Assembly (NCBI GenBank): GCA_963555755.3
Contig: OY820905.2
Span: 1,792,001-1,856,000 of the forward strand
Length of the DNA: 64,000 bases
Direction of reading: 5' to 3'
DNA from: Nitrospirales bacterium
GTDB lineage: Bacteria > Nitrospirota > Nitrospiria > Nitrospirales > UBA8639
Position 1 is the first letter of the stretch, and every line of letters starts with the position of its first letter. Made by a program: the position numbers and the translations under genes. Shown here piece after piece: positions 728 to 61,204 of the stretch. The notes below the pieces were generated by a model. It had not been told where the DNA came from. It did not search any database and worked only from the letters and a program-made list of their open reading frames with translations.

Positions 728-803
728 TGGAGCCCACGACGCGGATCGAACGCGTGACCTCGTCCTTACCAAGGACGTGCTCTGCCAACTGAGCTACATG
801 GGC
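728..803 (-). tRNA. tRNA-Thr(GGT)
   Basis: Cloverleaf, anticodon loop TTGGTAA, GTTCGA T-loop, 3' CCA. Confidence 0.96.
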
Positions 804-899
804 CTTGATTTCGTAAAACGGGAAACGAGCGGAATGCAGATTCTGTCGTCCCAATTCTTCACCCTTCACGTGTACCGTTTTACGCCTCACGCTTCTCAC

Positions 900-975
<76 letters not shown>

Positions 976-1043
976 TACGCCCTACATGCCTATTAAAATC
1001 CAACGAACGAATTCTCCCTGCCCTTCCCTCGGCAACAAAAAAA

Positions 1044-1128
1044 TGGTGGGCAGGCAAGGATTCGAACCTTGGAAGCCGACGGCAGCAGATTTACAGTCTG
1101 CCCCCTTTGTCCACTCGGGTACCTGCCC
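1044..1128 (-). tRNA. tRNA-Tyr(GTA)
   Basis: Anticodon loop CTGTAAA, long variable arm, 3' CCA. Confidence 0.96.
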
Positions 1129-7533: not shown

Positions 7534-8582
7534 TATGCCTTCCCATTTAACTAAACCTGTTTAAATGGATCAAACAGCGTCTCAGCTGCAAATCTTTTTT
7601 CAACATCTCCGAAAATGCCGTCATTGGAGTCAGATCGGGATCGCCAACTCAGTCAAGATGTGCTTGACAGGTATCGTCAAAACACGCCTCATGATCAAGA
7701 CCGTTCTACCCAGGTTTACAGATTTTGCCTCACGCTGTTTGGAAAATTGTGAATCAAATACTTACCCAGGAACTTGCCATGAGTAGACTGGTGCCATACG
7801 TAATCAATAGAAATTGGTGATAATTTAACCGAGTATCCCTTCCAACCATCGGACTTGATCTTACTGCCCTTAGCGACATGGCTTTTAGGAATGCTATTCA
7901 TCTCGTCTCTCCAACGTCTTGAAGAATCGCATACCATTGTAAACGCCCTGCCTTCCCATTTGACTAAGGTGATCCCTAGTGTAGTACTGCTGGACTATGG
8001 ACACAGGGTATGCTGCTGATATCTTGGTTTTCTGTTAGGTTCGCACACCGAAGAAGCGTGCTTCGAGTACTTGCCACCGATATCGGTGGCCAGACGGGTT
8101 CAATGTGTCCAGCTTGCCGTCATCGCGGTGGTTGGTCGCTCAAAAAATATTTCCGGTTTGAGTGTTGTCGTGTCATAGACAGGACATCACCTTCTGAAGC
8201 GGCACAGTGATGCATAGACGCACTTGCGCTACGGCTTTGGTTTTGGGAGCCTATAGGCGTCTCCACGCACAACCAAAGCCAGTGCTGTGCAATTGCAGCG
8301 TCAACTCAGTATCAAGAAGGTGGATAGCGCCTGGATTCTGCTCCACAGATTGCGACGAGGAATGGTACGACAGAACCGTGAACGGCTCGCAGGAACAGTT
8401 GAAGCCGACCAACCCATATCGCGTGGACCGGCAAGCTGGCAAAACGGGCCGTGGCGTCGCGAAAGCGCAAAACCGAAGACGTTCTTAGCCGGAGCCGTAG
8501 AAATTCCACGTACACACAAGGGGATCCCTTTCCAGAGAAAGCAGGGCGTTTACGATTAACCTTAGTCAAATGGGAAGGCATA
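7534..8582 (-). mobile_element. Scrambled IS1595 copy (possible assembly artefact)
   Basis: Both IS1595 IRs and an 8-bp TSD TCGCACCA; interior is an error-rich mosaic of IS4-remnant and inverted IS1595 segments. Confidence 0.75.
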
Positions 8583-8612
8583 TCGCACCAATATCCCAGC
8601 CCTGGTTTGCCC

Positions 8613-8903: not shown

Positions 8904-9021
8904 GCCAATATATAATTTGTGATTTTAATATACTTAGTATTGACATGCCTTTTATAATTATATTCACTAGTGTCCCAACGTTGCTAGATCCATCCCGCAT
9001 AACCATTTGAATTATAGAAGA

Positions 9022-10033
9022 TATGCCTTCCCATTTGACTAAGGTTAGTCCCTAGACTAGTCTGCTGGACTATGGACACAGGGTATGCTGCTGATATCTT
9101 GGATTTTTCTGTTAGGTTCCACACCGAAGAAGCGTGCTTCGAGTACTTGCGGGCGATTCGGTGGCCAGACGGGTTTATGTGTCCAGCTTGCGGTCATCGC
9201 GGTGGTTGGTGGCTCAAAAAATATTTCCGGTTTGAGTGTTCGTCGTGTCATAGACAGACATCACCGCTAAGCGGCACAGTGATGCATAGATCGCACTTGC
9301 CGCTACGGCTTTGGTTTTGGGCTGCCTATTTCGTCTCCACGCACACACCTGGCATCAGTGCTGTGCAATTGCAGCGTCAACTCAGTATCAAGAAGGTGGA
9401 TAGCGCCTGGTATTTGCTCCACAGATTGCGACGAGGAATGGTACGACAGAACCGTGAACGGCTCGCAGGAACAGTTGAAGCCGATGAAACCCATATCGGT
9501 GGACCGGTAAAAGGCAAAACGGGCCGTGGCGTCGCGAAAGCGAAAACCAAGACGTTAATAGCCGGAGCCGTAGAAATTGTCACGTACACACAAGGGGATC
9601 ACTTTCGAGAGAAAGCAGGGCGTTTACGATTAGCGATTCTTCAAGACGCTGGAGAGAACGAGATCAAAGCATTCCTCAATAGCCATGTCGCTGAGGGCAG
9701 TAAGATCAAGTCCGATGGTTGGAAGGGATACTCGGCAAAAGCCTTGGCAGGATACGAACACCTGAGACGGACCCAGGGTGACCCAGCAAGTGCTGGGAAG
9801 CACGCTCCACACATCCATAGAGCGTTCGGCAATCTGCAGACCTGGCTGAACGGGATTCACCATGGAGTGGATTCAAAATACCTGCAACACTATCTTGATG
9901 AGTTTGTCTTTCGCTATAACCGCCGTGAGACTCCAATGAGTACCTTCCAGAGTTTGTTGAAAATCCTGACCAGCAGCTCAAAACCCTTGGGATTCAATAA
10001 ACTGAAGCAACCTTAGTTAAATGGGAAGGCATA
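9022..10033 (+). mobile_element. IS1595 family element, copy 1
   Basis: IRs TATGCCTTCCCATTT(G/A)ACTAAGG; TSD ATAGAAGA. Confidence 0.95.
9072..10016 (+). CDS. IS1595 family transposase
   Basis: RWPDGFMCPACG zinc finger, VEADETHIGG, SDGWKGY, YLDEFVFRYNRR. Confidence 0.95.
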   Translation: MDTGYAADILDFSVRFHTEEACFEYLRAIRWPDGFMCPACGHRGGWWLKKYFRFECSSCHRQTSPLSGTVMHRSHLPLRLWFWAAYFVSTHTPGISAVQLQRQLSIKKVDSAWYLLHRLRRGMVRQNRERLAGTVEADETHIGGPVKGKTGRGVAKAKTKTLIAGAVEIVTYTQGDHFREKAGRLRLAILQDAGENEIKAFLNSHVAEGSKIKSDGWKGYSAKALAGYEHLRRTQGDPASAGKHAPHIHRAFGNLQTWLNGIHHGVDSKYLQHYLDEFVFRYNRRETPMSTFQSLLKILTSSSKPLGFNKLKQP

Positions 10034-11714
10034 ATAGAAGAAATTAGGCGAATCATGGGTGTCACCGATTTGAACTGTGCAAAAACCTCTAAAATGCCAC
10101 TATTTAGGCTATTTTTGGAGGAAAATCATGCACATAGGGAAACTCGTCTTTGCTCAATTGATGGATCATCTTCCCATGCATACCTTTCGTTGCTGTGTGA
10201 CGCGCTACGATGGAAATCACAAGGTCAAATCATTCAGTTGTCTCGACCAATTCCTCTGTATGAGCGTTGCTCAATTGACCTACAGAGAAAGCCTTCGGGA
10301 TATCGAGGCCTGTCTTCGTGCCCAACGAGAAAAGTGCTACCACATGGGTATTCGTGGAAGCGTCTCTCGCAACACTCTCTCCAATGCCCACAAAGTCCGC
10401 GACTGGAGAATGTACGCCGACGTTGCTCAGGCCTTGATCAAGATGGCACGGCCCCTCTATGCCCAAGAAGATTGAGGGCTCGATCTCGACAATACTATCT
10501 ATGCGCTCGACGCCTCCACAATCGATCTCTGTCTCTCCGTGTTTCCCTGGGCGCTCTTTCGTTCCACCAAATCAGCTGTCACACTCCATACCCTGCTCGA
10601 TTTACGAGGCAATATCCCAACTTTCATCCATATCTCAGACGGCAAGCTACACGACGTCAAGGTCCTCGATCTCCTCATCCCAGAGCCAGGGGCGTTCTAC
10701 ATCATGGATCGAGGGTATCTGGATTTCGGACGACTCTTCACCCTGAATCAAGCCGGCGCCTTCTTCGTCATTCGCGCCAAGAGCAATACCCAATACACAC
10801 GTCGGGACTCTCATCCCATAGCCAGATCCCAGGGGCTGCGCTGCGATCAACGTATTATTCTGACCGGAGTCGATTCAAAGAAGGACTATCCACAATCATT
10901 ACGGCGGATCAAATATCACGACGACCAGATCGACAAAACCTTCAATTTCCTGACCAACAACTTTTTGATACCCGCACAGACTGTAGCCGATCTCTACCGG
11001 TATCGATGGCAGGTAGAGCTGTTTTTCAAATGGATCAAACAACACCTGAGAATCAAATCCTTTTTTGGCACGTCCGAGAATGCCGTGAAGCGTCAGATTT
11101 GGATCGCCATCTCAGTCTACGTGCTCGTGGCGATCATCAAAAAACGACTCAACCTCAAAACCGATCTCTACACAATATGACAGATTTTGAGTCTGACGCT
11201 TTTCGAGAAAACACCATTGGATCAATTACTTATGGGCATCCATTACAAAAATGAGGATTCTATGATGTCTAACCAATTGAATTTGTTCGATTAAACGTTG
11301 GGACACTAGTGAATTATATTATAGGTTTATTTGCCCTCGTGTTCAATGGCCCTCGTGTTTAATGTATCGCGAATTTCTTGTAATCGGGAGAAAACAAAAA
11401 AACATACCGGGGCCGTTGAGATTTGAGAGACCGTGAATGCCCAAGTAGGCAAGACTAATTTGGAGGATCTATATCAAAGGCAATATATCTAAACATTTGT
11501 AAGGCCATGGATCTAAAAGTTCTGAATTGAGCAGCCGTTGAATCATGTTGAAATTTTTGTGGGTCATAACAGAATACATGGTTCTCCCATACCGCCATCC
11601 AATTCTGGCTCCCTGAAGCTTTTTGTCCCTGCCTCTCCTTCCTGTTAGCTTTCTTTCTTGTGTAGCTGTACAATATTACCAGCCTTCGCTGAAGCGGGCT
11701 TCGCGCAGGCAGGT

Positions 11715-19965: not shown

Positions 19966-20112
19966 GGGGTCGCGCTAGCATGTTTGGGTGCTGAGACGCC
20001 TGTCTGGCAGGGCGCGAGGACTGCGCATACTCCTCGTATGGAAAGGACGAACAACGCCGCCAGACAGGATGGATCGACGCCCAAACAGGGGAAGTTATTC
20101 TAGCGCGACCCT
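19966..20112 (-). repeat. MITE-like family A copy; overlaps the rluE stop
   Basis: Reverse copy of 20745-20901 with a deleted left arm. Confidence 0.85.
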
Positions 20113-20694
20113 TAAGAGCCGAAGCTCTTGGGAACGGAGCTGTCGATACTGACCTGAAAGCAAGTTATCGATACGTATCGGACCGATCGCCATTCGAATA
20201 ATTCGGAGAGCAGGATGACCGACGGCCGCGGTCATCCGCCGGACCTGTCGATTCATCCCTTCAGCAATTGAAATCTCCAACCAGGCAGTTGGAACCGATT
20301 TGCGAAATCGAATAGGAACGGGACGTTCCCATAACGAAGGGGCGTGATCCAACAGATGAACCCTCGCTGGCCGAGTCTTCCGTCCGCCAATAACCACTCC
20401 TGTGCGAAGTTTTGCTAAACTGTGTTTATCGGGAATGCGTTCAACTTGCACGACATAGGTTTTAAACAATTTAAACTTGGGGTCAGTTAAACGATGCGCT
20501 AATGACCCATCGGCAGTGAGCAGAAGCAATCCCTCGCTGTCGAAATCAAGTCGTCCCGCCGCATACACATCGGGAACGGAAATATAATCCGACAGTGTGG
20601 GACGCTGTGATGTATCCGTAAAACAAGACAGCACGCCATACGGTTTATTGAAGATCAGGGTGTGACCAGGATGTATTTTCACATTTCTCACCAC
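20095..20694 (-). CDS. rluE: RsuA/RluE family pseudouridine synthase
   Basis: FNKPYGVL, AGRLDFDSEGLLLLT, EGMNRQVRRMTAAVGHP. Confidence 0.85.
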   Translation of the reverse strand: MVRNVKIHPGHTLIFNKPYGVLSCFTDTSQRPTLSDYISVPDVYAAGRLDFDSEGLLLLTADGSLAHRLTDPKFKLFKTYVVQVERIPDKHSLAKLRTGVVIGGRKTRPARVHLLDHAPSLWERPVPIRFRKSVPTAWLEISIAEGMNRQVRRMTAAVGHPALRIIRMAIGPIRIDNLLSGQYRQLRSQELRLLRVALE

Positions 20695-20744: not shown

Positions 20745-20901
20745 GGGTTCGCGCAAGAATAACTTCCCCTGTTTGGGCGTCGATCCATCCTGTCTGGCGG
20801 CGTTGCTCGTCCTTTCCATACGAGGAGTATGCGCAGTCCTCCCGCCTTGCCAGACAGGCGTCTCAGCACCCAAACAGGGGAAGTTATTCTTGCGCGAATC
20901 C
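20745..20901 (+). repeat. MITE-like family A (~156 bp)
   Basis: ~32-bp TIR GGGTTCGCGCAAGAATAACTTCCCCTGTTTGGG; copies at 19966, 33620 and 42311 (partial). Confidence 0.9.
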
Positions 20902-21003: not shown

Positions 21004-22023
21004 ATGGCCTGGGAACCAAAAGATCCGTGGGGGAAACAAGGTGGCTCAGACCCTCTGGATGACGTCCTTAAAAAAGCCCAAGAACAATGGAAGCGGCTGA
21101 TGCCGTCGACTGGGGTGAAGACCATCATCTTGATTGTCGTGGGCATTTTCGCACTCACCCAAGCCTTCTACAAAGTCGAACCCGATGAGGAAGGTCTCGT
21201 GAAACGGTTTGGCGATGTAGTCCGCGTCGTTGGACCTGGCCCCCATTTCAAAATTCCGATCCTTGAAAGCGTGGATACGCCTAAGGTTGAAAAATTGCAC
21301 CGGATCGAAGTCGGGTTTCGCACCAATGCTCGAGGCCGGTCACAGATGGTCCCGCAAGAAGCGCACATGTTAACGGGGGATATGAATATTCTGGTCGTTG
21401 AATTTATCGTGCAATACAAAATCAGCAATGCCAGAAACTTTCTTTTTAATGTTGCGGGCATTGAAGAGACGATCCGAAAAGCCGCGGAAGCCTCCATGCG
21501 GGAAATCGTCGGCAAAAACAAGATCGATGAAGTGTTAACTGTGGGCAAAGCCGAGATTCAAATGAAAACCCAAGCCCTCCTGCAGGGAATACTCAACCAA
21601 TATGAGGGCGGAGTACAGATTTCCACCGTCCAATTATTGGATGTAAACCCCCCACAGAAAGTGGCGAAATACTTTAAAGATGTCGCCAGTGCGAAAGAGG
21701 AGAGAGAGCAGCTCATCAACCAAGCCCATGGCTATCGAAATGACCTCATACCCAAAGCCAAAGGACAGGCGGCACAAGATGTTAATGAAGCCAAAGGGTA
21801 TGCTAAGTCCAGAATCGCTCGGGCTGAAGGTGAAGCGAATCACTTTTTGCAAACACTGAAAGAATACAAAAAAGGCAAAAACGTCATCGCCACGCGGGTG
21901 TATATCGAAACCATGGAAAAAGTGCTCTCGAACGTCGATAAAATTATTCTAGATTCTAACGCAGCGGGCAATGTCATCCCCTATCTCCCGTTAGATCGAA
22001 TGAAAAGGCAGGCTTCACCATAA
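21004..22023 (+). CDS. hflK: FtsH protease modulator HflK
   Basis: MAWEPKDPWG N-terminus, SPFH domain, MLTGDMNI, RVYIETME. Confidence 0.95.
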   Translation: MAWEPKDPWGKQGGSDPLDDVLKKAQEQWKRLMPSTGVKTIILIVVGIFALTQAFYKVEPDEEGLVKRFGDVVRVVGPGPHFKIPILESVDTPKVEKLHRIEVGFRTNARGRSQMVPQEAHMLTGDMNILVVEFIVQYKISNARNFLFNVAGIEETIRKAAEASMREIVGKNKIDEVLTVGKAEIQMKTQALLQGILNQYEGGVQISTVQLLDVNPPQKVAKYFKDVASAKEEREQLINQAHGYRNDLIPKAKGQAAQDVNEAKGYAKSRIARAEGEANHFLQTLKEYKKGKNVIATRVYIETMEKVLSNVDKIILDSNAAGNVIPYLPLDRMKRQASP

Positions 22024-22880
22024 TGAAACAAAATCTAATCCTCGGCATATTAGGTGTATTCGTCTTGCTCATTATGTTGGGGGTATCCCCATTCTTTATT
22101 GTTGATCTGACGCAAACGGCCATCGTCGTCCAGCTTGGTGAACCCAAGCGAACCATCACCGAACCCGGCTTAAAGTTCAAGATTCCCTTCGTGCAAGAAG
22201 TCACCTATTTTGATAAACGACTCCTGGATTACGACGTCCCCGCTCGCGAGGTCATTACCAAAGACAAAAAGACTATTTTGATCGATAATTACGCCAAATG
22301 GAAAATCGTGGATCCCCTCCAAGTGTACAAATCATTCCAAACCCAACGGGGAGCGCTTCAACGATTGGACGATATCGTCTATTCCGAGCTTCGCGTGGAG
22401 CTAGGTGGCCATGAACTCCACGAAATTGTCTCCGCCAACCGGTTGGTGATCATGGCCAAGGTCGCACTACGAGCCAACGAAATAGCCAACAAATATGGCT
22501 TGGAAATCTTAGATGTCCGAATCAAACGCGCGGACCTGCCTGAGCAAAATGCCAAGGCCGTGTTTGATCGCATGCAAGCCGAACGGGAACGGATCGCCAA
22601 ACAGTATAAAGCCGAAGGCGCGGAAGAAGCGCAGAAAATTCGATCGGAAGCCGAAAAGGATCGCGCAATTCTTTTAGCCAATGCCTACAAAACGTCCCAA
22701 GAACTTCGCGGTGCGGGCGAGGCCAAAGCCTTCAAAATTTACGCCGATGCCTATCGGCAAGATCCCAAATTTTTTGAATTTATTCGGACCATGGAAGCCT
22801 ACGGTAAAGTCTTCTCCACAAACACCACCATGGTGCTCAGTCCCGATTCCGAGTTTTTGCGATACCTGAAAAAACGCTAA
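22023..22880 (+). CDS. hflC: FtsH protease modulator HflC
   Basis: DVRIKRADLP, RMQAERER, LSPDSEFLRY. Confidence 0.96.
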   Translation: MKQNLILGILGVFVLLIMLGVSPFFIVDLTQTAIVVQLGEPKRTITEPGLKFKIPFVQEVTYFDKRLLDYDVPAREVITKDKKTILIDNYAKWKIVDPLQVYKSFQTQRGALQRLDDIVYSELRVELGGHELHEIVSANRLVIMAKVALRANEIANKYGLEILDVRIKRADLPEQNAKAVFDRMQAERERIAKQYKAEGAEEAQKIRSEAEKDRAILLANAYKTSQELRGAGEAKAFKIYADAYRQDPKFFEFIRTMEAYGKVFSTNTTMVLSPDSEFLRYLKKR

Positions 22881-23043
22881 CCGCCTCGGTTTACAATTCA
22901 ACCTTCCTTCACATTCCGCCCTTGCTTGACCATCTCTTTTCAGGTTAAAACTCCAGCATGGCAAACCAAGGACATCAATAGGAAAAACTAGTAGAGACAC
23001 AAGTCAATCAGCCAGAAAAGTCCAAAATTCTTCCACACCAACC

Positions 23044-23313
23044 ATGCCTGAAATCGCTAGATTTTTTGGAATCATCATTCGAATGTATGTCGAACCAAGT
23101 GGCCCTCATCACCGACCACACTTTCATGCGTACTATCAAGAACATGTCGGAATTTATGCCATCGATGAAATCGAACTTCTCGCCGGCAGTCTTCCAGCTC
23201 GACAAGAACGTCTGGCTACAGCTTGGGCAGAAATCCATCAAGAAGAACTCTTAAATAACTGGAATGTCTTGCAGGCTGGTGCTCCTCCAAGTAAAATTGA
23301 ACCACTGCGGTAA
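23044..23313 (+). CDS. DUF4160 family putative toxin (DhiT-like)
   Basis: MPEIARFFGIIIRMY...HHRPHFHAYY...WAEIHQEELLNNW...KIEPLR. Confidence 0.9.
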   Translation: MPEIARFFGIIIRMYVEPSGPHHRPHFHAYYQEHVGIYAIDEIELLAGSLPARQERLATAWAEIHQEELLNNWNVLQAGAPPSKIEPLR

Positions 23314-23317
23314 CAAT

Positions 23318-23614
23318 ATGGCTCACTCAATCCATAAAGTCGTGAAGTTTGAAAAGGTGGCTCCGTTCACCCTCAACGTTGAATTTGAGGACGGCGCACA
23401 TCAGGTCATCGACTTTCAACCAGTTTTACGGGGAGAGGTATATGGACCGTTGAACGATGCACGTGTATTTGATCAGGCTTGTTTAGACGAAGAAGTCCAT
23501 ACTATCGTGTGGCCCAATGGAGCGGACTTTGATCCTGCCACACTCTATGATTGGCCTCAAGCCGGACCAAAACTTGAAGCGCTGACAAAATGCTGGAAAA
23601 CAAAGGTCGGATAG
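23318..23614 (+). CDS. DUF2442 family putative antitoxin (DhiA-like)
   Basis: LNVEFEDG, TIVWPNGADFDPATLY. Confidence 0.9.
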   Translation: MAHSIHKVVKFEKVAPFTLNVEFEDGAHQVIDFQPVLRGEVYGPLNDARVFDQACLDEEVHTIVWPNGADFDPATLYDWPQAGPKLEALTKCWKTKVG

Positions 23615-23768
23615 CCCACACCTCCCCTTGGTGCTCAGTCCCGATTCCGAGTTTTTGCGATACCTAAAAAAACGGTAACCGCGTCGGTTTTCACTTCATC
23701 CTCTCTCTTCAGCATTACACCACGTTTCATCCTTGCTTCACCGTCTCTTCTCACGTTAAAACAGTAAC

Positions 23769-24422
23769 ATGGCAAACCAAGAACATCTTGACCTCGTTCT
23801 TCAAGGGCTGGAGGTGTGGAATAAATTTCGGCGAACGCAGCCAGATGTCCACCCCGACCTCAGCGGTGCCGACCTGTCGGGGTATGACTTTACGCGAATG
23901 GATTTTTCGAAAACGGATTTTACCGGCGCGGATCTATCCGATGCCTACTTGCTTCGCGCCAATTTCGAAGAAGCCAACCTCACCGAAGTCAATCTCACAG
24001 AGGCAGATATTCTTGATGCCAATCTCATCAAAGCCGTGCTCACCAAAGCCACAATGGTGATGACCGACCTCAGTGGAACCGGCATGGTTCGTGCGGACCT
24101 CACAGGAGCTGACCTCTCGAAAGCCAACCTTACACGAACCGCCTTACCATGGGGAATACTGCGGGGATGCACACTCGTCGAAACCAATTTAAAATTGGCT
24201 GACCTCCGCGAAGCCGACCTCACAGATGCCGACCTTTCTCAAGCCAATCTCCAAGACGCGTCGCTCACAGGCACCATATTCAAAGGAGCCAATCTCCAAA
24301 CCACCAAAAACATTTCGCTGGAACTCTTAGGCAAAACCAGCACTCTTCACAATGCCCAACTCGATTCAGAGATTAAAAAAGAAATTGAGAAGAGCTATTC
24401 TCACCTCCTAAAGGACGCTTAG
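23769..24422 (+). CDS. Pentapeptide repeat protein
   Basis: MANQEHL..L.QG..VWN; tandem A(D/N)Lxx repeats. Confidence 0.93.
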   Translation: MANQEHLDLVLQGLEVWNKFRRTQPDVHPDLSGADLSGYDFTRMDFSKTDFTGADLSDAYLLRANFEEANLTEVNLTEADILDANLIKAVLTKATMVMTDLSGTGMVRADLTGADLSKANLTRTALPWGILRGCTLVETNLKLADLREADLTDADLSQANLQDASLTGTIFKGANLQTTKNISLELLGKTSTLHNAQLDSEIKKEIEKSYSHLLKDA

Positions 24423-24780: not shown

Positions 24781-25386
24781 GGGAAATACTTAAGAAACAA
24801 ATCAAGTAAAATGGAGGGGTGAAAGGCAAACCCAATTAAAACTCAATAGTCAGTGTTTAAAGGGCTTTCATGGCCAAAAGGCAGGTTCCATGTAACAGTA
24901 TTGGGTATACTGTTACATTTTCTTTTAAATTGAAATCTTAAGGTGGGTAGATCCCCCGGCAAAGGTGGGGATGTTGTGGAAGCCGCCGAATTGGCCCGGG
25001 CTATTTTCCATCGCCTGAATCTGCCTTAGTAGAATGCCACCCTGCTTCCAAGAAATCCATCATGGCCTGCGGGATTTGTGCGCCGGACTTATCCTTGAGG
25101 GACTCTTGGAGATCGTCAGGCAGTGGAATAGCATGCTTCCGGAAAAAACTTTCAAATTCGGAATAGAGATCATTCAACCAAATTTCGGTCCTTTCCTCCT
25201 GGCTCCCAAAAAACTGGAGATGCTTCGAACTTATTGGTGATTCCCTCTGGTAATGAAAGGTCGCGTTTCGAAACAACCTGAGTTTGTCTACGAAGGGGGA
25301 ATGGAGAAGCTGGTCTATCTTGGGATCACTTAGCTTCAGATCCTTCCAGCCCTCAATCACGAGGTAAATTCCTGAATATGAGTACA

Positions 25387-26398
25387 TATGCCTTCCCATT
25401 TGACTAAGGTTAGTCCCTAGACTAGTCTGCTGGACTATGGACACAGGGTATGCTGCTGATATCTTGGATTTTTCTGTTAGGTTCCACACCGAAGAAGCGT
25501 GCTTCGAGTACTTGCGGGCGATTCGGTGGCCAGACGGGTTTATGTGTCCAGCTTGCGGTCATCGCGGTGGTTGGTGGCTCAAAAAATATTTCCGGTTTGA
25601 GTGTTCGTCGTGTCATAGACAGACATCACCGCTAAGCGGCACAGTGATGCATAGATCGCACTTGCCGCTACGGCTTTGGTTTTGGGCTGCCTATTTCGTC
25701 TCCACGCACACACCTGGCATCAGTGCTGTGCAATTGCAGCGTCAACTCAGTATCAAGAAGGTGGATAGCGCCTGGTATTTGCTCCACAGATTGCGACGAG
25801 GAATGGTACGACAGAACCGTGAACGGCTCGCAGGAACAGTTGAAGCCGATGAAACCCATATCGGTGGACCGGTAAAAGGCAAAACGGGCCGTGGCGTCGC
25901 GAAAGCGAAAACCAAGACGTTAATAGCCGGAGCCGTAGAAATTGTCACGTACACACAAGGGGATCACTTTCGAGAGAAAGCAGGGCGTTTACGATTAGCG
26001 ATTCTTCAAGACGCTGGAGAGAACGAGATCAAAGCATTCCTCAATAGCCATGTCGCTGAGGGCAGTAAGATCAAGTCCGATGGTTGGAAGGGATACTCGG
26101 CAAAAGCCTTGGCAGGATACGAACACCTGAGACGGACCCAGGGTGACCCAGCAAGTGCTGGGAAGCACGCTCCACACATCCATAGAGCGTTCGGCAATCT
26201 GCAGACCTGGCTGAACGGGATTCACCATGGAGTGGATTCAAAATACCTGCAACACTATCTTGATGAGTTTGTCTTTCGCTATAACCGCCGTGAGACTCCA
26301 ATGAGTACCTTCCAGAGTTTGTTGAAAATCCTGACCAGCAGCTCAAAACCCTTGGGATTCAATAAACTGAAGCAACCTTAGTTAAATGGGAAGGCATA
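25387..26398 (+). mobile_element. IS1595 family element, copy 2
   Basis: Same IRs as copy 1; TSD TGAGTACA. Confidence 0.95.
25437..26381 (+). CDS. IS1595 family transposase
   Basis: Protein identical to 9072-10016. Confidence 0.95.
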   Translation: MDTGYAADILDFSVRFHTEEACFEYLRAIRWPDGFMCPACGHRGGWWLKKYFRFECSSCHRQTSPLSGTVMHRSHLPLRLWFWAAYFVSTHTPGISAVQLQRQLSIKKVDSAWYLLHRLRRGMVRQNRERLAGTVEADETHIGGPVKGKTGRGVAKAKTKTLIAGAVEIVTYTQGDHFREKAGRLRLAILQDAGENEIKAFLNSHVAEGSKIKSDGWKGYSAKALAGYEHLRRTQGDPASAGKHAPHIHRAFGNLQTWLNGIHHGVDSKYLQHYLDEFVFRYNRRETPMSTFQSLLKILTSSSKPLGFNKLKQP

Positions 26399-26519
26399 TG
26401 AGTACATTAAGTAAATCCCTGGGGGAAAACAAAGGAAAACCTCTAAGCCCAGTTTTTCGTTGCTTACTATTTGCAACCAATCTTCATTCATTTCTCGACA
26501 ATACAAAACCCGCATGTGT

Positions 26520-27801
26520 GAGAGAAGGACCCGGAAAAATTGACACTGTCTTAAGTGGATAGGTAGACCTGTTTCAATCATCTTCATGTCCTTTACAGGA
26601 GCTTATCATGAGTAGACGAATCCGACGAAATCACCAACCTGCATGCAAGGCGAAAGTGGCGCTTGCTGCCCTGAAGGGCGATTTTACCACTGCCGAATGA
26701 GCGAAGAAATTTGAGGTCCACGCGAACCAGATCTCCCCATGGAAAACACAGCTACTAGAGAAGGCACCCGGAGTCTTTGATGAGAAGTGGCGCGAGACAG
26801 GCCCTCCCGTTGAGGTGAAAACCCTGCATGCCAAGATCGGGCAACTGACGTTAGAGAATGATTTTTTAGAAGGCGCGCTCGGCAAGGCCGGACTCCTGAG
26901 CGCAAGGCCATGATCGACCGGAACCATGCACTCCCCGTATCGCACCAAGCCAAGATACTCGGATTATCGAGAGGTTGTCTCTATTATCAACCTGTCCCCC
27001 TCAGTGAGCGTGACCTTGCGTTGATGCATCGTCTGGATACACTGCATCTGGCCCACCCGTTTGCCGGGTCGCGTATGTTGAGAGATTTGCTCCAATTGGA
27101 GGGCTCCAGCGTTGGGCGCACACACGTGAGAACCCTGCTGAAGCGGATGGGCATCGAAGCCCTCTATCGCCAGCCCAGGACGACTCAGAGGCATCGAGGA
27201 CACGCCGTATATCCGTACTTACTCAGGAATCTATCCATTACGCGGCCCAATCAGGTGAGGGCCTCGGATGTCAGCTACCTTCCGATAGCCCATGGATTTG
27301 TCTATCTGACGGTCAGGCTAGACAGGTATAGTCGCCGAGTCCTGTCATGGCGTGTGTCGGTAACGATGGATGGGGAATGTATCATGGATGCCTTGGAAGA
27401 GGCGATTGAGAAATATGGCTGTCCAGCAATCATGAACACGGATCAAGGCAGGCAATATACCAGTGAGCGATTCATCCAAGCGCTCAAGGAGCGAGATATT
27501 CAAATGAGCATGGACGGCAAAGGAGCCTGGCGTGACAACATTTTCGTTGAACGCCTGTGGCGATCAGTCAAATATGAGGATATGTACTTACATGCCTATG
27601 AGACGCCGAATGAGGTCAAACAAGGCCTGAAACGGTATTTTCAATTCTACAATACCAGTCGTCCACATCAAGCCCATACGGACCAGACACCTGATACGGC
27701 GTATTTCAACCTGTTGCCTGTAGCCGAGGTAGCATAATTCATTGGGATACTTTCCACTTAAGACTTGGCTTGGGGTGTTCAGATAAACGGGACCACCTCT
27801 A
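26520..27801 (+). mobile_element. IS3 family element, decayed (orfA 26608-26913 with TGA at 26698; orfB 26910-27737)
   Basis: KAKVALAAL and LHAKIGQLTLENDFL in orfA; YPYLLRNL, NTDQG, MDGKGAWRDNIFVERLWRSVKYE in orfB; imperfect IRs. Confidence 0.88.
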
Positions 27802-27831
27802 ACTACAATTAAAGAGAAAGAAGGGAACGAC

Positions 27832-28097
27832 CTAGTGTTTAGAGTCAGGGTTGTTGCTTCGTCGGATGACGACGATGCGGCCGAGGAGATGATTGGGCGG
27901 GTTTACGGATGTTTCGATTAAATCGATTCGAGAGCCTACGCCTTGGAGTATGCGAAGGCCTTGGGAGGTTTGGACGAAGCCTTTGGCTCGGAGGGCTTGA
28001 TGGGATTGGATTTGTTTAATGAGGGTGTCGGGATCAATGCCGGGGTCTAGCTGGATTTCTTCAGATTCAAAGGCCTCGTAGGTATGAGGGAATTGCT
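27832..28097 (-). pseudogene. Orphan diverged copy of the last ~87 codons of cobW
   Basis: Open frame QFPHTYEAFESEEIQLDPGIDPDTLIKQIQSHQALRAKGFVQ...RRSNNPDSKH*; 13 amino-acid differences from 28775-29040. Confidence 0.85.
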
Positions 28098-28144: not shown

Positions 28145-28375
28145 ATGAATTGGGAAGAGCGGATACAGGTTGATCCAAATGTTCTTGTGGGGAAACCCGT
28201 GATAAAGGGGACACGCTTGGCGGTTGAGTTTATCATCGACCTCTTAGCTCAAGGATGGACCGAAAAGCAGATACAGGAGAATTATCCTGGCATTACTCAT
28301 GAAGACATTCAAGCCTGTCTTGCTTACGCCAGCGCTATCTTGCATGCCGAACGGGTTTTCCCCCTACCGACTTGA
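28145..28375 (+). CDS. DUF433 antitoxin
   Basis: RIQVDPNVLVGKPVIKGTRL...YPGITHEDIQACLAYA. Confidence 0.93.
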   Translation: MNWEERIQVDPNVLVGKPVIKGTRLAVEFIIDLLAQGWTEKQIQENYPGITHEDIQACLAYASAILHAERVFPLPT

Positions 28376-28378
28376 CCC

Positions 28379-28744
28379 GTGCGCATTCTTGCCAATGAAA
28401 ATGTGCCAGGTGAGATTGTTCAGGCACTAAGAGATCGAGACCATGATGTCAGCTGGATACGAATTGATGCTCCTGGAAGTGTGGACACCGAAGTACTTTC
28501 CCGCGCTCAAACAGAAGATCGCCTCCTCTTAACCTTTGATAAGGATTTCGGAGAACTTGCCTTCCGATGGGGACTCCAAGTCTCTAGTGGCATTATTCTT
28601 ATTCGTCTCTCTGCTCCTTCCCCCACCCAACTTCAACAATCAGTGATTTCCGCACTCGAAAGCCGAGATGATTGGGCCGGAATGTTTTCAGTTATTGAAA
28701 CAAGCCGAATCCGTACCACACCCTTACCTCCACAGGTCAAATAA
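28379..28744 (+). CDS. DUF5615 PIN-like toxin
   Basis: MRILANENV, LLTFDKDFGELAF. Confidence 0.92.
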   Translation: MRILANENVPGEIVQALRDRDHDVSWIRIDAPGSVDTEVLSRAQTEDRLLLTFDKDFGELAFRWGLQVSSGIILIRLSAPSPTQLQQSVISALESRDDWAGMFSVIETSRIRTTPLPPQVK

Positions 28745-28774
28745 CTCGTCAATCCCTGGATAGAAGGAAACAGT

Positions 28775-29689
28775 CTAGTGTGTTGAATCTGGTTTGGTGC
28801 TTCTTCGAATGACGACGATGCGGTTGAGGAGATGGGCTGGGGGATTTACGGTGGTTTCGATTAGGTCGATTCGAGAGCCTACGCCTTGAAGTATGCGAAG
28901 GCCTTGGGAGGTTTGGACGAAGCCTTTGGCTCGGAGGGCTTGGTGGGATTGGACTTGCTTGATAAGGGTTTCCGGATCGATACCGGGCGCTATTTGGATT
29001 TCTTCAGATTCAAAGGCCTCATGGGTATGCGATACCTGTTGATCGCGCTGGTGTTTGGCCTGAGTCTCCGGGTCTGGAGTAAATAAGACTTTGGACTCGA
29101 CATTTGCATTGGTGGCACGAATGAGTGGAGTGCCCGGGGCCATGTGCTCTAATTGTTTCTCAATCAGATCGAGTTGATCGGCCTCGATCAAATCAATTTT
29201 ATTGACGATGAGGAGATCTGCCGATGACACTTGTTGCTCGAAGGTTCCGCTTAAGTCACGCCCTTCTGCAACTTGTTCGGCATTGACTACGACCACCGTA
29301 ATACTATCGCCTACCCATTCAGTCACCGGTTCTCGCCAAAAATTGATAAGCGTTTCGAACGGTAAGGCCACGCCTGAGGTTTCAACGACAATCCGATCTG
29401 GCTGAACCTCTTCCCACAGTTGCTGTAAGGTCTTCACTAACTCATCGGACAGCTTACAGCAGACACAGCCGCCTTCCAATTCGACATAGCTGTTGGAGCC
29501 TTGATTGCCCAGCAATGCCTGATCAATGCCTAAGGCCCCGAATTCGTTCGATACGATTGCCAGTCGCAATCCTTGACGTTGTGCGTCCTTGAGAAGATGT
29601 TGAACGAGTGTGGTTTTACCCGCCCCTAAGAATCCTGACACGACGAGGGCGGGAATACCGGCGAGAGGAGCAGGCTGTGGGTTCTTCAT
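28775..29689 (-). CDS. CobW/COG0523 GTP-binding metallochaperone
   Basis: GFLGAGKTT, NEFG, GCVCC, ETSG, NKID. Confidence 0.93.
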   Translation of the reverse strand: MKNPQPAPLAGIPALVVSGFLGAGKTTLVQHLLKDAQRQGLRLAIVSNEFGALGIDQALLGNQGSNSYVELEGGCVCCKLSDELVKTLQQLWEEVQPDRIVVETSGVALPFETLINFWREPVTEWVGDSITVVVVNAEQVAEGRDLSGTFEQQVSSADLLIVNKIDLIEADQLDLIEKQLEHMAPGTPLIRATNANVESKVLFTPDPETQAKHQRDQQVSHTHEAFESEEIQIAPGIDPETLIKQVQSHQALRAKGFVQTSQGLRILQGVGSRIDLIETTVNPPAHLLNRIVVIRRSTKPDSTH

Positions 29690-39260: not shown

Positions 39261-39759
39261 ACATGTCTTCTCCTGACGATTGGAATAGCTTTTGTGAGTC
39301 GAGAGGTGACTATCTCACAGCTCTCGCTATTACCGTGGCCCAAGGGGTGACCCGCCAAGACACGAGCTACCCGGCATTTTGCGGATGTATCGATTGGCAT
39401 TCCTGTGTTCACGGCCTCTATGCGTTGCTCACCGTTTCACGACTCACAGACGATCCGCAATGGGCCGAGATTGTGGAATCGCGATTCGAGCCAGGCAAGC
39501 TCGAGCAGGAACTTGTGGCCATCCAACGAGAGGAAATCAATCAAGAAATGCCGTATGGGTTTGCGTGGTTTCTGAAACTGGCACAAGAACGGGAGCGGTC
39601 GTCAGACCACCAGGATTTACGGCCTTTGGCTACGGAACTCGCCCGACGATTGGAACAGTGGATTTTTTCTTTTTCCTCGGAAGAGATTATTTACCACGTT
39701 CAACATCGCGCCTATGGCAATCTCTCCTGGGCCCTACTCAATTTGTGGGAATGGGTTCA

Positions 39760-40771
39760 TATGCCTTCCCATTTAACTAAGGTTGCTTCAGTTTATTGAA
39801 TCCCAAGGGTTTTGAGCTGCTGGTCAGGATTTTCAACAAACTCTGGAAGGTACTCATTGGAGTCTCACGGCGGTTATAGCGAAAGACAAACTCATCAAGA
39901 TAGTGTTGCAGGTATTTTGAATCCACTCCATGGTGAATCCCGTTCAGCCAGGTCTGCAGATTGCCGAACGCTCTATGGATGTATGGAGCGTGCTTCCCAG
40001 CACTTGCTGGGTCACCCTGGGTCCGTCTCAGGTGTTCGTATCCTGCCAAGGCTTTTGCCGAGTATCCCTTCCAACCATCGGACTTGATCTTACTGCCCTC
40101 AGCGACATGGCTATTGAGGAATGCTTTGATCTCGTTCTCTCCAGCGTCTTGAAGAATCGCTAATCGTAAACGCCCTGCTTTCTCTCGAAAGTGATCCCCT
40201 TGTGTGTACGTGACAATTTCTACGGCTCCGGCTATTAACGTCTTGGTTTTCGCTTTCGCGACGCCACGGCCCGTTTTGCCTTTTACCGGTCCACCGATAT
40301 GGGTTTCATCGGCTTCAACTGTTCCTGCGAGCCGTTCACGGTTCTGTCGTACCATTCCTCGTCGCAATCTGTGGAGCAAATACCAGGCGCTATCCACCTT
40401 CTTGATACTGAGTTGACGCTGCAATTGCACAGCACTGATGCCAGGTGTGTGCGTGGAGACGAAATAGGCAGCCCAAAACCAAAGCCGTAGCGGCAAGTGC
40501 GATCTATGCATCACTGTGCCGCTTAGCGGTGATGTCTGTCTATGACACGACGAACACTCAAACCGGAAATATTTTTTGAGCCACCAACCACCGCGATGAC
40601 CGCAAGCTGGACACATAAACCCGTCTGGCCACCGAATCGCCCGCAAGTACTCGAAGCACGCTTCTTCGGTGTGGAACCTAACAGAAAAATCCAAGATATC
40701 AGCAGCATACCCTGTGTCCATAGTCCAGCAGACTAGTCTAGGGACTAACCTTAGTCAAATGGGAAGGCATA
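39760..40771 (-). mobile_element. IS1595 family element, copy 3
   Basis: IRs and TSD TGGGTTCA. Confidence 0.95.
39777..40721 (-). CDS. IS1595 family transposase
   Basis: One substitution (APHIH to APYIH) versus copies 1 and 2. Confidence 0.95.
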   Translation of the reverse strand: MDTGYAADILDFSVRFHTEEACFEYLRAIRWPDGFMCPACGHRGGWWLKKYFRFECSSCHRQTSPLSGTVMHRSHLPLRLWFWAAYFVSTHTPGISAVQLQRQLSIKKVDSAWYLLHRLRRGMVRQNRERLAGTVEADETHIGGPVKGKTGRGVAKAKTKTLIAGAVEIVTYTQGDHFREKAGRLRLAILQDAGENEIKAFLNSHVAEGSKIKSDGWKGYSAKALAGYEHLRRTQGDPASAGKHAPYIHRAFGNLQTWLNGIHHGVDSKYLQHYLDEFVFRYNRRETPMSTFQSLLKILTSSSKPLGFNKLKQP

Positions 40772-41120
40772 TGGGTTCAATTTCGGAAGGATACCGAACG
40801 AGCCGAGGCGTTGGTGAGATGGACCAAAGATCATGTACTTCCCCTCGATCAGGCTGTGCCTCTTTCTTTCGATAACGAGACGAATGAATTCTTCTCCGCC
40901 TCGCTTCAACGTACACGAGCTTTGCTAGCAATTTTATCCAAGGAAGAAAGCCAGGAATGGCTGGAGGATTTTTTTCGTGAGGGGGTTTTCCTCCAACCCG
41001 TGGAGCACCCCTCATCTCCACATTCGGCAGGGTTGAACTTCAGTCGCAGTTGGGCCTTTTGGGATCTGTACACCCATACGGGCGAAACAGCCTTTCGTGA
41101 CCAGTACATCCATCACATTG

Positions 41121-58574: not shown

Positions 58575-58967
58575 TCAACTCCCATCATCCTTAAAAATAT
58601 CCTCTAGCTTCTGTTGCAACCTCTCTTGGGTTACCGGTTTGACCAAGTACCCGTCGGCTCCGGCCAGGATCGCTTCCCGGATATGTTTGTGATCGTCATC
58701 GGCTGTGACCATAAGAACCTTCATGGACTTCAGCGATAAATCGGTCTTGACGAATTTGAGTAACTCCATCCCATCCATCTCCGGCATGTGCCAATCGGCT
58801 AATAGCAGGTCGAAGGCTTGCCCTTGTAGTTGCTCTTGTGCCTCCTGGCCATTGACCACAGCCACCACATTGGTGACACCTAATTTATCAAGGAGTAGCA
58901 CGACAAGCTTTCGCCCATCCGGATGATCTTCAGCGACAAGAACGGATTTGTTAGCATACTTTTTCAT
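58575..58967 (-). CDS. CheY-like single-domain response regulator, copy 1
   Basis: VAED, ADWHMPEMDG, MVTA, KPVT. Confidence 0.92.
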   Translation of the reverse strand: MKKYANKSVLVAEDHPDGRKLVVLLLDKLGVTNVVAVVNGQEAQEQLQGQAFDLLLADWHMPEMDGMELLKFVKTDLSLKSMKVLMVTADDDHKHIREAILAGADGYLVKPVTQERLQQKLEDIFKDDGS

Positions 58968-59027
58968 GATTGGCAAACCCTTTGTTAATGAACGATGGTG
59001 TGGTACGACTGTGTTTTCTATTCCTAA

Positions 59028-59105
59028 TGGGGTCAGACTCGATTAAATACGATCATCTCGACTGACTAGGGGCACCGCTCGCCATTTAATCGAGTCTGAC
59101 CCCAT
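59028..59105. repeat. 21-bp perfect inverted repeat TGGGGTCAGACTCGATTAAAT
   Basis: Arms at 59028-59048 and 59085-59105 (approximate). Confidence 0.8.
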
Positions 59106-59270
59106 TTAGTCCATTTCGCAGCTCGGTGCCCAGGGTATACGAGCGTCTCAATGGCCACTGCCGCGCGGAAGAAGCAGCATAAGATGCCGCGGCTACACTT
59201 GCAGGGGAACGCAGGGGGAACTCCCCCTGCACCCCCCACTTGCCGGAAAATTATCACATCACTCGAATGA

Positions 59271-59969
59271 TCAAATCACCACCCCCCGCCGGGCACGTCG
59301 CCACCCAATCAGCCCCACTAACCCACTACCCAACAGCACCATCGTACTGGGTTCCGGTACGGGCGAACGCACGGCCCAGCCGAAAAACGAGTTGCCCATG
59401 TCGAAGTAGTTCTTTCTTAAGACATCCTGATAGCCAAAGCGGTGATAGTTGAAGTTCCACGCGAGGTCGGTATCCGGCGCGAACTCCGTACCAGACCAAT
59501 ACCTTCCGGCCTGCACGTTCTCAAACACCCCAGGGGCCGCCGCGGTGATGCCCTCCACATTGAACAAGTGCCCCATCTCACTGCCGGTACAGCCAGTGCC
59601 AAAGCCTAGATAGCCAAAGCCTGGTACTTCACCTTGTTTCTCACAATCCGGATCCGGCTGCGTCGTCGTCGGTAGCCGCCAGTTATTGAACCCTTTGTAA
59701 TTGGCCACATTCATCCCGGCAATCCAACTGTTGGCGGTGTCCCAGAACATGCTTCCATTGTCGGCGATCCCCCCGTCTTTGACGTCTTTGTTCTCTAATC
59801 CAAACAGTTTCGTGTACGCCAAGTTGGCATCTTTGAGCCACGTCACGTTGAGATGGTCGTCGTAGATCAGGCCATTGCCTCGATCGATCAGCGTCGCCCC
59901 CGCCGGGGCCACTGCCACACTGGTCAATAACGCCAAACTCACAACTCCTTTGATCAATAAGGCTTTCAT
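59271..59969 (-). CDS. PEP-CTERM protein with DUF1566-like domain
   Basis: Signal peptide, NWRLPT, YWSGT, WAVR, VPEPSTMVLLGSGLVGLIGWRR. Confidence 0.92.
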   Translation of the reverse strand: MKALLIKGVVSLALLTSVAVAPAGATLIDRGNGLIYDDHLNVTWLKDANLAYTKLFGLENKDVKDGGIADNGSMFWDTANSWIAGMNVANYKGFNNWRLPTTTQPDPDCEKQGEVPGFGYLGFGTGCTGSEMGHLFNVEGITAAAPGVFENVQAGRYWSGTEFAPDTDLAWNFNYHRFGYQDVLRKNYFDMGNSFFGWAVRSPVPEPSTMVLLGSGLVGLIGWRRARRGVVI

Positions 59970-60507
59970 AGGATTCCCTTCCGTTGAAGTGATAAGTGTA
60001 TAAGATAGGAGCTAAGTATACCTATCCATGGTTGTCGAGTTACCTACTCTGCAAGGGCCACGCCACACACCGAGCCGCCGATTGAAGTGGTGCATTCGAA
60101 CGCGTTCACGAAAAATGTGTGGTGTTGTGTGGTGTTGTTGCGTCACGCATCAAGCGCGGGTGGCACGGCAGGTTTGCCACCACCGTAAAGGGTTCCGACA
60201 CCCGCTGCGCAGGAAGGCGAGGCAACGAGAACCACGGGGCATCATTGACCATGTCCTGAACCTCCTGAACACGAACGAGCCCCGGTGAAACGTGTAAAAT
60301 TTTGTGACAGGTTCTTGAGGGCTTTTGGACGGAGGGGGGAGGGACATACTACCTCATAGGGCTAATTGCCTCTGTTCATGCGGGCTGTCGTGCATCATGG
60401 CGACACCCGCTGCGCAGCTCTCACCGTGGAAAGAATCCCGACATCCCCCAAACGAGGGAGGCCTAGGCTCACATCCCATAGTTCAGATAGCCGAGTTGAT
60501 CAACAAA

Positions 60508-60648
60508 GGGCACCTCTCACAACCAGTCATTTTTTGTGAGGGCAAGGAAGCCGCGCGCGGAAAACCGGCGTGTATGGGCGAATACATGAGGAGTTGAGCA
60601 CGCGGCTGACGCCGCCCTCACGGAAAAGGACGGTTTGTAGAGGTGCCC
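60508..60648 (-). repeat. MITE-like family B, third copy
   Basis: Reverse complement of 34276-34416. Confidence 0.88.
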
Positions 60649-60758
60649 TACAGTCTTCGGCGGAAATGGTGCTGAGGAGCGATAGCGCATTGGTGGCATA
60701 GGACGGCTGACGCGTAGGGGGATTCTGATGAGCCGCCCGGGATACGCGGAAACCCCTT

Positions 60759-61145
60759 CTATTCATCCTTAAAAATATCTTCTAGCTTCTGTTGCAACCT
60801 CTCTTGTGTGACCGGCTTGATCAAGTACCCGTCGGCTCCGGCCAGGATCGCTTCCCGGATATGTTTGTGATCGTCATCGGCTGTGACCATAAGAACCTTC
60901 AGAGACTTCAGCGAGGAATCGGCCTTGACGGATTTGAGTAACTCCATCCCATCCATCTCCGGCATGTGCCAATCGGCTAATAGCAGGTCGAAGGCTTGCC
61001 CTTGTATCTGCTTCTGTGCCTCCTGGCCATTGACCACGGCCACCACATTGGCGATACCTAATTTATCCAGGAGTCGCACGACAAGCTTTCGCCCATCCGG
61101 ATGATCTTCGGCGACAAGAACGGATTTGTTGGCATATTTCTTCAT
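60759..61145 (-). CDS. CheY-like single-domain response regulator, copy 2
   Basis: Near-identical protein to 58575-58967. Confidence 0.92.
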   Translation of the reverse strand: MKKYANKSVLVAEDHPDGRKLVVRLLDKLGIANVVAVVNGQEAQKQIQGQAFDLLLADWHMPEMDGMELLKSVKADSSLKSLKVLMVTADDDHKHIREAILAGADGYLIKPVTQERLQQKLEDIFKDE

Positions 61146-61204
61146 GTTGGCGGCACCCTTTGTTGATAAACGATGGTGTGGTACGACTGTGTTTTCTATT
61201 CTTA

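Follow-up and report, generated by a model that had tools for sequence, protein, structure and literature searches.

How can a toxin-antitoxin (TA) pair, accompanied by no recombinase gene, come to lie between two copies of the end of a housekeeping gene? The question is raised by a stretch of 64,000 nucleotides (nt) from a Nitrospirales bacterium (GenBank assembly GCA_963555755.3, contig OY820905.2, positions 1,792,001 to 1,856,000 of the forward strand; hereafter the window), in which a small islet with a predicted TA pair separates hflC from a pentapeptide-repeat gene. We consider it probable that the pair entered as a ~0.8-kb circle from a related species bearing its own allele of the hflC-pentapeptide junction, and that a single RecA-type crossover, with no integrase, joined it to the chromosome. 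This reading is based on the empty site in relatives, the lack of a recombinase gene in the cargo, the synonymous bias and the reciprocal mosaics of the repeat copies, and the recurrence of the layout at unrelated gene ends. The layout itself is already known; our additions are TA cargo at scale and the evidence for import plus crossover.

The islet between hflC and the pentapeptide gene

The features of the locus are as follows (window positions, strand, description).

21004..22023, +, hflK (Band_7), core gene upstream (open reading frame, ORF, and domain search)
22023..22880, +, hflC, intact, its last ~50 nt within repeat copy 1 (TIGR01932 above cut-off)
22828..22976, +, repeat copy 1 (149 bp), from the hflC end through the spacer to nt 19 of the pentapeptide gene (local alignment)
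22831..22867 and 23629..23665, +, 37-nt core identical between the copies (alignment)
22907..22915, putative crossover zone, where matching to the sister sequence switches from copy 1 to copy 2, beside the spacer indel
22922..22951, +, predicted promoter of the pentapeptide gene (TTGCTT, 18 nt, TAAAAC, 6 nt, ATG), pointing into the toxin gene
22958..22981, +, start of the pentapeptide gene, a 7-codon stub entered from copy 1
22977..23625, cargo, 649 bp, 46% GC, without a recombinase-sized ORF
23044..23313, +, DUF4160 / DhiT-like predicted toxin, 89 amino acids (Pfam, E 7.9e-22)
23318..23614, +, DUF2442 predicted antitoxin, 98 amino acids (Pfam, E 8e-10)
23626..23787, +, repeat copy 2 (162 bp), from an orphan hflC end through the spacer into the intact pentapeptide gene (local alignment)
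23733..23762, +, second copy of the predicted promoter, 6 nt ahead of the pentapeptide ATG
23769..24422, +, pentapeptide-repeat gene, intact, 217 amino acids, entered from copy 2 (domain search)

The original prediction had described direct repeats around a DUF4160/DUF2442 pair; the Pfam matches bear out the pair, and local alignment refined the repeats to 22828-22976 and 23626-23787. Of 149 aligned bases, the copies have 131 in common (88%), and neither matches anywhere else in the 4.62-Mb genome. Their hflC-coding parts differ by the two synonymous changes already reported (CTG/CTA and CGC/CGG) and by one further change at the extreme edge, while the intergenic indels noted earlier amount to a 13-16-nt indel in the spacer; the pentapeptide part contains one replacement change. 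A 5-bp hairpin directly 3' of the hflC stop is present in both copies with an altered loop (22879-22891 and 23677-23689). When the pentapeptide gene was compared with NCBIfam, the matches to PipB, Qnr and other families were all far under their cut-offs, and are attributable to the repeat structure.

An assembly artefact was ruled out by the divergence of the copies together with a single 821-nt contig of run X2, which covers 22838-23658 across the copies with 0 differences. As X2 is possibly the source sample and the contig reaches just 30 letters past the cargo/copy-2 joint, we read the match as consistent with the structure and not as independent proof of it, and it is in this sense that the worry of the original prediction, that sequence data might fail to span the structure, is answered. 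The X2 contigs break at the 37-nt core, as expected of two real copies. An RNA element or a tRNA attachment (att) site was also rejected, since Rfam gave only three tRNAs far from the islet; these lie at window positions 731-1128 on the minus strand.

Among the hflC loci of 29 relatives, 18 also hold the pentapeptide gene, in every case 21-308 bp from hflC and with no cargo between, and the other 11 gave no pentapeptide match within the locus. Two sister metagenome contigs (L064 and L065, 93% nt identity to the window) have one repeat copy and no cargo, and contigs of relatives in the sediment run X14 join across the position of the cargo (22887 to 23755; 22892 to 23754). The single-copy empty site that the original prediction expected in relatives was hence found in 18 of 18 loci and in both sister contigs, and the outcome that it had named as contrary, relatives with both copies and no TA pair, was not encountered. 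Low-depth contigs of the cargo are present in runs X10 and X14, so some related cells hold the cargo at some location. The closest homologues of the TA pair, in relatives G003 (75%) and G020 (72%), are at other sites.

Similar islets at other gene ends

The genome under study (G000) includes contigs C1 and C2, the latter of 14 kb. A scan for local direct repeats at a spacing of 300-2600 bp returned 477 pairs, 60 of which were unique to their locus and had 250 bp or more between the copies. By inspection, about 20 of the 60 appeared as an intact gene end, a small cargo and an orphan copy of the end, the remainder including tandem paralogues and intragenic repeats; the layout was found at no fewer than a dozen other TA pairs of the genome. 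The targets, as identified by Pfam, include a histidine kinase, dienelactone hydrolase (DLH), acetyl-CoA synthetase, an NADH dehydrogenase subunit (which we take to be nuoN), metG, cobW, DNA polymerase III alpha (presumably dnaE2), citrate synthase, sortase, cytochrome c, an ABC permease and bioB, among others. The cargos are PIN pairs, DUF433/DUF5615, MNT/HepT, BrnT, HigBA, DarTG, DUF4160/DUF2442 and AAA_14, along with a few non-TA genes. In 17 tabulated islets the repeats are 43-591 bp long; one end lies within 60 nt of the stop of the target in 13 of them and the other end is variable, and no core is shared among the targets. By the same method throughout, a unique flanking repeat was detected at 10 of the 42 TA-family hits on C1 (4 DUF2442, 6 DUF433 and 32 PIN, with one PIN hit on C2 excluded) vs 3 of 250 random points (p 3e-7), the latter three pairs not being at TA genes; since the random points are mostly core DNA, the figures compare TA genes with core rather than with other accessory genes.

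The window itself contains two more repeat pairs, of which the first had been noticed in the original prediction as having an architecture like that at hflC. This likeness holds, and it extends to about 20 more sites with unrelated targets and cargo families.

27816..28086, -, orphan copy of the cobW 3' end (271 bp, 85%)
28145..28744, +, cobW islet cargo, a DUF433 + DUF5615 predicted TA pair
28775..29689, -, cobW, intact, its 3' end in the repeat 28759-29029, the clearest mosaic
58585..61204, -, third repeat pair: 442-bp copies at 58585-59026 and 60763-61204, 93% identical, with non-TA cargo and a TGACCCC end at the joint

A frame at 26910-27737, which on reading we take to be an IS3-like transposase, directly adjoins the cobW orphan copy. 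The PIN hit and repeat pair on C2 match the score and statistics of C1:4141240-4142627, and C2 may be an excised or duplicated segment.

Flanking repeats scoring 50 or more were also detected in relatives, at 5 of 28 DUF2442 loci, 8 of 23 PIN loci, 10 of 27 DUF433 loci and 8 of 29 HepT loci, as well as at 6 of 28 DUF5615 loci across the phylum, one of which is a clear gene end; these counts are unfiltered for dispersed repeats and tRNAs. Judged by eye, about ten of the repeats at the PIN, DUF433 and HepT loci overlap a gene end or start. Three species differ in the cargo at the end of bioB: G000 has an AbiEii-like pair there, G003 a PIN pair and G006 a Fic gene, with repeats of 285, 221 and about 190 bp across the three, and no bioB duplicate was found in G002 or G004. 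In G000, this end belongs to a hotspot of 12.9 kb between the convergent ends of the ABC permease gene and bioB (C1:3904458-3917731, locus L144), which holds three repeat-flanked islets: FitA/PIN, DarTG ahead of hsdM, and the AbiEii-like pair. As the two gene ends adjoin each other in G004 and in sediment contigs, representing the empty state, the 12.9 kb were accreted at the hotspot with an islet on each side. Some islets are common to species at one site: G000 shares the PIN pair of the ABC permease with G003 and the DUF2442 pair of cytochrome c with G005, and a sigma-54 regulator islet occurs in G021, G088 and G102. In other genera, islets recur at the 3' ends of sigma-54 regulator genes, and the cargo there consists of one or two TA pairs (loci L037, L040, L041, L054 and L297).

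Mosaic copies and the mode of entry

If a circle entered by one crossover, the intact copy should be native and then foreign, and the orphan copy foreign and then native. All seven loci with a usable outgroup (hflC, cobW, dnaE2, nuoN, DLH, bioB and metG) were subjected to this test. At hflC, the informative sites up to 22906 match copy 1 to the sister at 8 of 8, and those beyond match copy 2 at 8 of 12. Read 5' to 3', the outgroup matches the intact copy first and the orphan copy later at hflC (permutation p 0.007), cobW (<0.001), dnaE2 (<0.001) and nuoN (0.01), and weakly at DLH (0.045); pooled over the seven loci, intact:orphan matches were 73:33 in the first halves and 30:81 in the second halves. 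The order persisted when 30 nt were trimmed from each edge (hflC 0.001, cobW 0.0002, dnaE2 0.004, pooled 0.004), and in this trimmed test the 5' part of the intact copy was native by halves at hflC (6:0), cobW (13:2) and dnaE2 (10:1). The two site classes are both rich in third positions (51 of 81 and 55 of 88), so the 5' differences are not decay. The working dnaE2 gene appears to carry a foreign tail, because the C-terminus in relatives resembles the orphan copy.

The positions of the mismatches point in the same direction. In 24 coding segments, picked by eye after the layout was known and perhaps including a few paralogues, mismatches at codon positions 1, 2 and 3 numbered 119, 87 and 340, with one stop and a pooled ratio of non-synonymous to synonymous divergence (dN/dS) of 0.17, vs about 0.55 expected under a simple decay model. 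The synonymous share was 327 of 546, vs 0.35 under the decay model (p 8e-32). All 20 mismatches of the nuoN segment are at third positions, six segments have individual dN/dS values of 0.4-0.7, and the changes in the hflC segment are too few for the test to be applied to it alone. The segment at C1:1142994, discarded as an enzyme-free islet on account of the Mutator transposase that it encloses, is still counted among the 24. Going by these sequence patterns, the copies diverged mostly while both were working alleles. The synonymous-biased divergence together with the reciprocal mosaics implies that the copies are not a local duplication, and duplication in place followed by neutral decay was ruled out by the two tests. 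The homology-driven cassette mechanism put forward in the original prediction is supported to this extent, as both tests favour homologous recombination with imported DNA.

The circle would carry the version of the hflC-pentapeptide junction of the donor species and would be integrated by host recombination in the manner of Campbell. Such a crossover would leave the host gene complete, its own tail exchanged for a foreign one, and the displaced native tail would be parked behind the cargo. The circle probably forms by end-to-end joining of a donor fragment comprising a gene end and adjacent accessory DNA, or alternatively by an existing islet popping out between its repeats. Uptake could proceed by natural transformation, given that comEC and dprA were found in the genome. 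TA pairs likely dominate the cargo through their clustering at gene ends and the toxic consequence of their loss on a reverse crossover; retention by addiction would be in line with what is generally known of type II systems. The duplicated promoter may serve to express the pair.

A number of observations weigh against the entry of a circle, besides the composition of the random-point control and the choice of the coding segments. The mosaic order was missing at bioB (p 0.22) and reversed at metG, two of the seven polarised loci, and after trimming by 30 nt it was no longer significant at DLH (0.21) and nuoN (0.07); the polarity is noisy because the outgroups are 82-93% identical. The metG orphan copy (C1:1441969-1442372) has a ~100-nt insertion, single-base deletions and a patchy mosaic, and its reversed order perhaps arose from more than one event. 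No unique flanking repeat was found at 32 of the 42 TA hits, and no long flanking repeat accompanies the homologues of the islet pair in G003 and G020. Ku, which might serve in end joining, was not found in the genome. Neither the circle nor its back-joint was detected in 4 + 4 contig sets, in which rare forms are dropped. The cargo contig of X2 has a depth of 66.6 vs 46.9 and 52.9, but contigs of another region span 30-70, and the depth therefore gives no evidence for a circle or amplification. Finally, both repeat ends at hflC are intragenic, so that in the donor the cargo must have been in place behind codon 7 of the pentapeptide gene beforehand, which calls for an extra earlier step.

This last point would be accounted for by linear DNA from a donor in which the order repeat-cargo-repeat was established beforehand, through an older islet or a tandem duplication, with two crossovers, one in each copy, and no circle. 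RecA alone would suffice and the final layout would be the same. The islets common to species at one site (the ABC permease PIN, cytochrome c DUF2442 and sigma-54 regulator islets) fit such transfer, as does DLH, which is mostly orphan-matching, as expected with a first crossover upstream; a duplication-then-recombination route has been outlined for rRNA genes (PMC3457768). We nevertheless regard linear transfer as unlikely, for the native 5' part at hflC, cobW and dnaE2 forces both crossovers into 150-270 bp despite kilobases of upstream homology. Alternatively, the cargo could have been inserted during break repair with copying of the own target of the cell, parts of which were overwritten later by recombination with relatives. 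The near-identical copy pairs (histidine kinase 98%, acs 96%), the patchy metG with decay in its orphan copy, and the resemblance of the layout to that described for restriction-modification (RM) genes (24-423 bp, often over a start or stop, no mobility gene; PMC2853133) could all be understood in this way. Overwriting, however, does not predict the reciprocal native/foreign order of the two copies, decay should have left more replacement changes and stops than observed, and no known DNA-cutting enzyme, which has been suggested as the trigger in the case of RM genes, is encoded in the cargos; we hold this route to be quite improbable.

A transposase or integrase acting in trans might have made the joint, or the islets might be remnants of larger elements. 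One candidate is a TIRYT-type Y1 transposase of the genome, an end of whose transposon would join a random site in the neighbouring gene, cutting out a circle. There are 17 Y1_Tnp hits in the genome, several with GGGGTCA...TGACCCC ends fitting the consensus GGGGWSAS (PMC3733652), and 4 of the 28 repeat pairs of the genome have an exact TGACCCC end at their cargo/orphan joint or close to it. Genome-wide, a repeat starts after 5 of 562 TGACCCC sites vs 27 of 16390 control sites (p 0.004), although the motif was picked post hoc and two of the five hits are probably transposon-end repeats themselves. No such end is present at the hflC joint (p 0.51), and the islet joints of relatives, inspected by eye, are without the exact end. 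A shorter ACCC/CCCT joint motif was given less weight, because part of the wider ACCC signal (10 of 29) is homologous coding sequence (ABC permease, bioB). For an integrase in trans, repeat lengths that vary at one target and the lack of a common core among targets are unlike att sites. An enzyme in trans or a decayed larger element is, to our mind, very unlikely to explain the islets.

Returning to entry as a circle, it is tempting to speculate that TA pairs of this lineage spread between species as enzyme-free "gene-end circles" with a housekeeping landing key, swapping foreign C-termini into such genes as cobW, nuoN and dnaE2 and being held by addiction; that "long target duplication" generally amounts to imported homology and one crossover; and that TIRYT ends cut some of the circles. 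This tentative extension may well prove wrong as a whole. The present genome offers about 20 cases, and sister species close enough to polarise seven of them. It also permits a testable prediction: RecA alone should suffice for the entry of a non-replicating circle that bears 100-400 bp of 85%-identical homology, and reciprocal mosaics should be left behind. On this pattern, circle entries would alter the C-termini of core proteins.

Cargo, known systems and neighbouring elements

The DUF4160 protein of the islet matches the NCBIfam DhiT model over its full length at 86.9 bits, under the cut-off of 100, and neither it nor the DUF2442 protein matched solved structures. DhiTA is a tested type II TA system of Dickeya dadantii with DUF4160 and DUF2442 domains, in which, as here, the DUF4160 toxin gene precedes the DUF2442 antitoxin gene (PMC8198452). 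Unlike in DhiTA, the toxin here is predicted from sequence, with its score below the cut-off and in a distantly related organism. The original prediction had suggested that the duplicated spacer may supply the promoter of the pair. A promoter-like motif that could drive it was indeed located in both repeat copies, as well as in each of the 8 close relatives that were checked, but a generic promoter scanner made no call there. Placed 6 nt from the pentapeptide ATG, the predicted promoter would give a leaderless transcript. In RNA run X8, one contig across hflKC stops at 22955 and one low-depth contig lies inside the antitoxin gene, such contigs being unable to reveal transcription starts or levels.

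Insertion of RM genes with long target duplication was reportedly recognised by Nobusato et al. in 2000. It was described further by Furuta, Abe and Kobayashi (2010, PMC2853133), who suggested a link to DNA double-strand breakage. As portrayed in that paper, the RM inserts are likewise small, without a mobility gene and between long, locus-unique repeats of variable length that often lie over a start or stop, the target being intact, the empty site single-copy and the cargo addictive. The hflC islet conforms to this description in having a genome-unique direct repeat of more than 30 bp (149/162 bp), an insert under 20 kb without a mobility gene (649 bp, two small ORFs) and a single-copy empty site in related genomes. 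Its cargo is DUF4160/DUF2442 instead of RM genes, placing it outside the RM set despite the like insertion layout. The islets of this genome differ further in their TA cargo of many families, with ~20 cases in one genome, and in that the copies are a native/foreign mosaic; that the two repeats do not both derive from the own target of the recipient is clear at 3-4 of 7 loci. The repeats here are mostly 84-95% identical, vs mostly 90-100% in Table 3 of PMC2853133, whose supplementary figures may show similar divergence; the word "toxin" is absent from its main text.

The unconventional circularizable structures of resistance genes have near-identical repeats and circles demonstrated by polymerase chain reaction (Palmieri et al. 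2013, as cited in PMC7843796), and the excised circle keeps one repeat, with re-entry into a pre-existing copy being proposed (PMC7843796). Long direct repeats around the cargo and the lack of a recombinase gene are common to these structures and to the hflC islet. Here, however, the repeats are diverged copies of the end of a housekeeping gene, and the circle is a putative one. The islet is not a site-specific integrative element with an integrase and a fixed att core, for no such ORF is in the cargo and the bioB repeats vary. Nor does it look like a derivative of TIRtrons, since the hflC cargo is without a GGGGWSAS-type end at either joint. The end motif at the joints of 4 of 28 repeat pairs is reminiscent of TIRtrons and TIRYT elements (PMC3733652; bioRxiv 10.1101/279083), whereas the cargos here are not bracketed by two ends and include no transposase. 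A literature search, with most subscription journals outside its reach, returned no title or abstract start describing TA pairs between diverged gene-end copies. ISCR1 circles are rescued by recombination into the integron 3' conserved segment, and some integrative elements replace the 3' end of a gene, ISCR1 and such elements encoding their own transposase or integrase; Neisseria minimal mobile elements swap by a double crossover that leaves no duplicate. Host recombination or gene-end restoration, and a partial second copy, are what these systems have in common with the islets.

TIRYT-type Y1 transposases with GGGGTCA...TGACCCC ends, often in tandem arrays, are located on C1 at 490105, 2166780, 2173444, 761688, 1147244 and 2923313. 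A DnaA-like C-terminal domain was confirmed for one of them, one adjoins the dnaE2 islet, and three near-identical copies suggest recent movement. In the window, an insertion sequence of ~1046 bp, IS1595-like by our reading, is present in three near-identical copies (9008-10046, 25363-26411 and 39740-40795), with a degraded copy near 7987-8595. A pseudouridine synthase gene (20095-20694) lies between 131-nt inverted copies (19981-20111 and 20746-20876) of a dispersed repeat, to which the sister contig L065 has related inverted matches.

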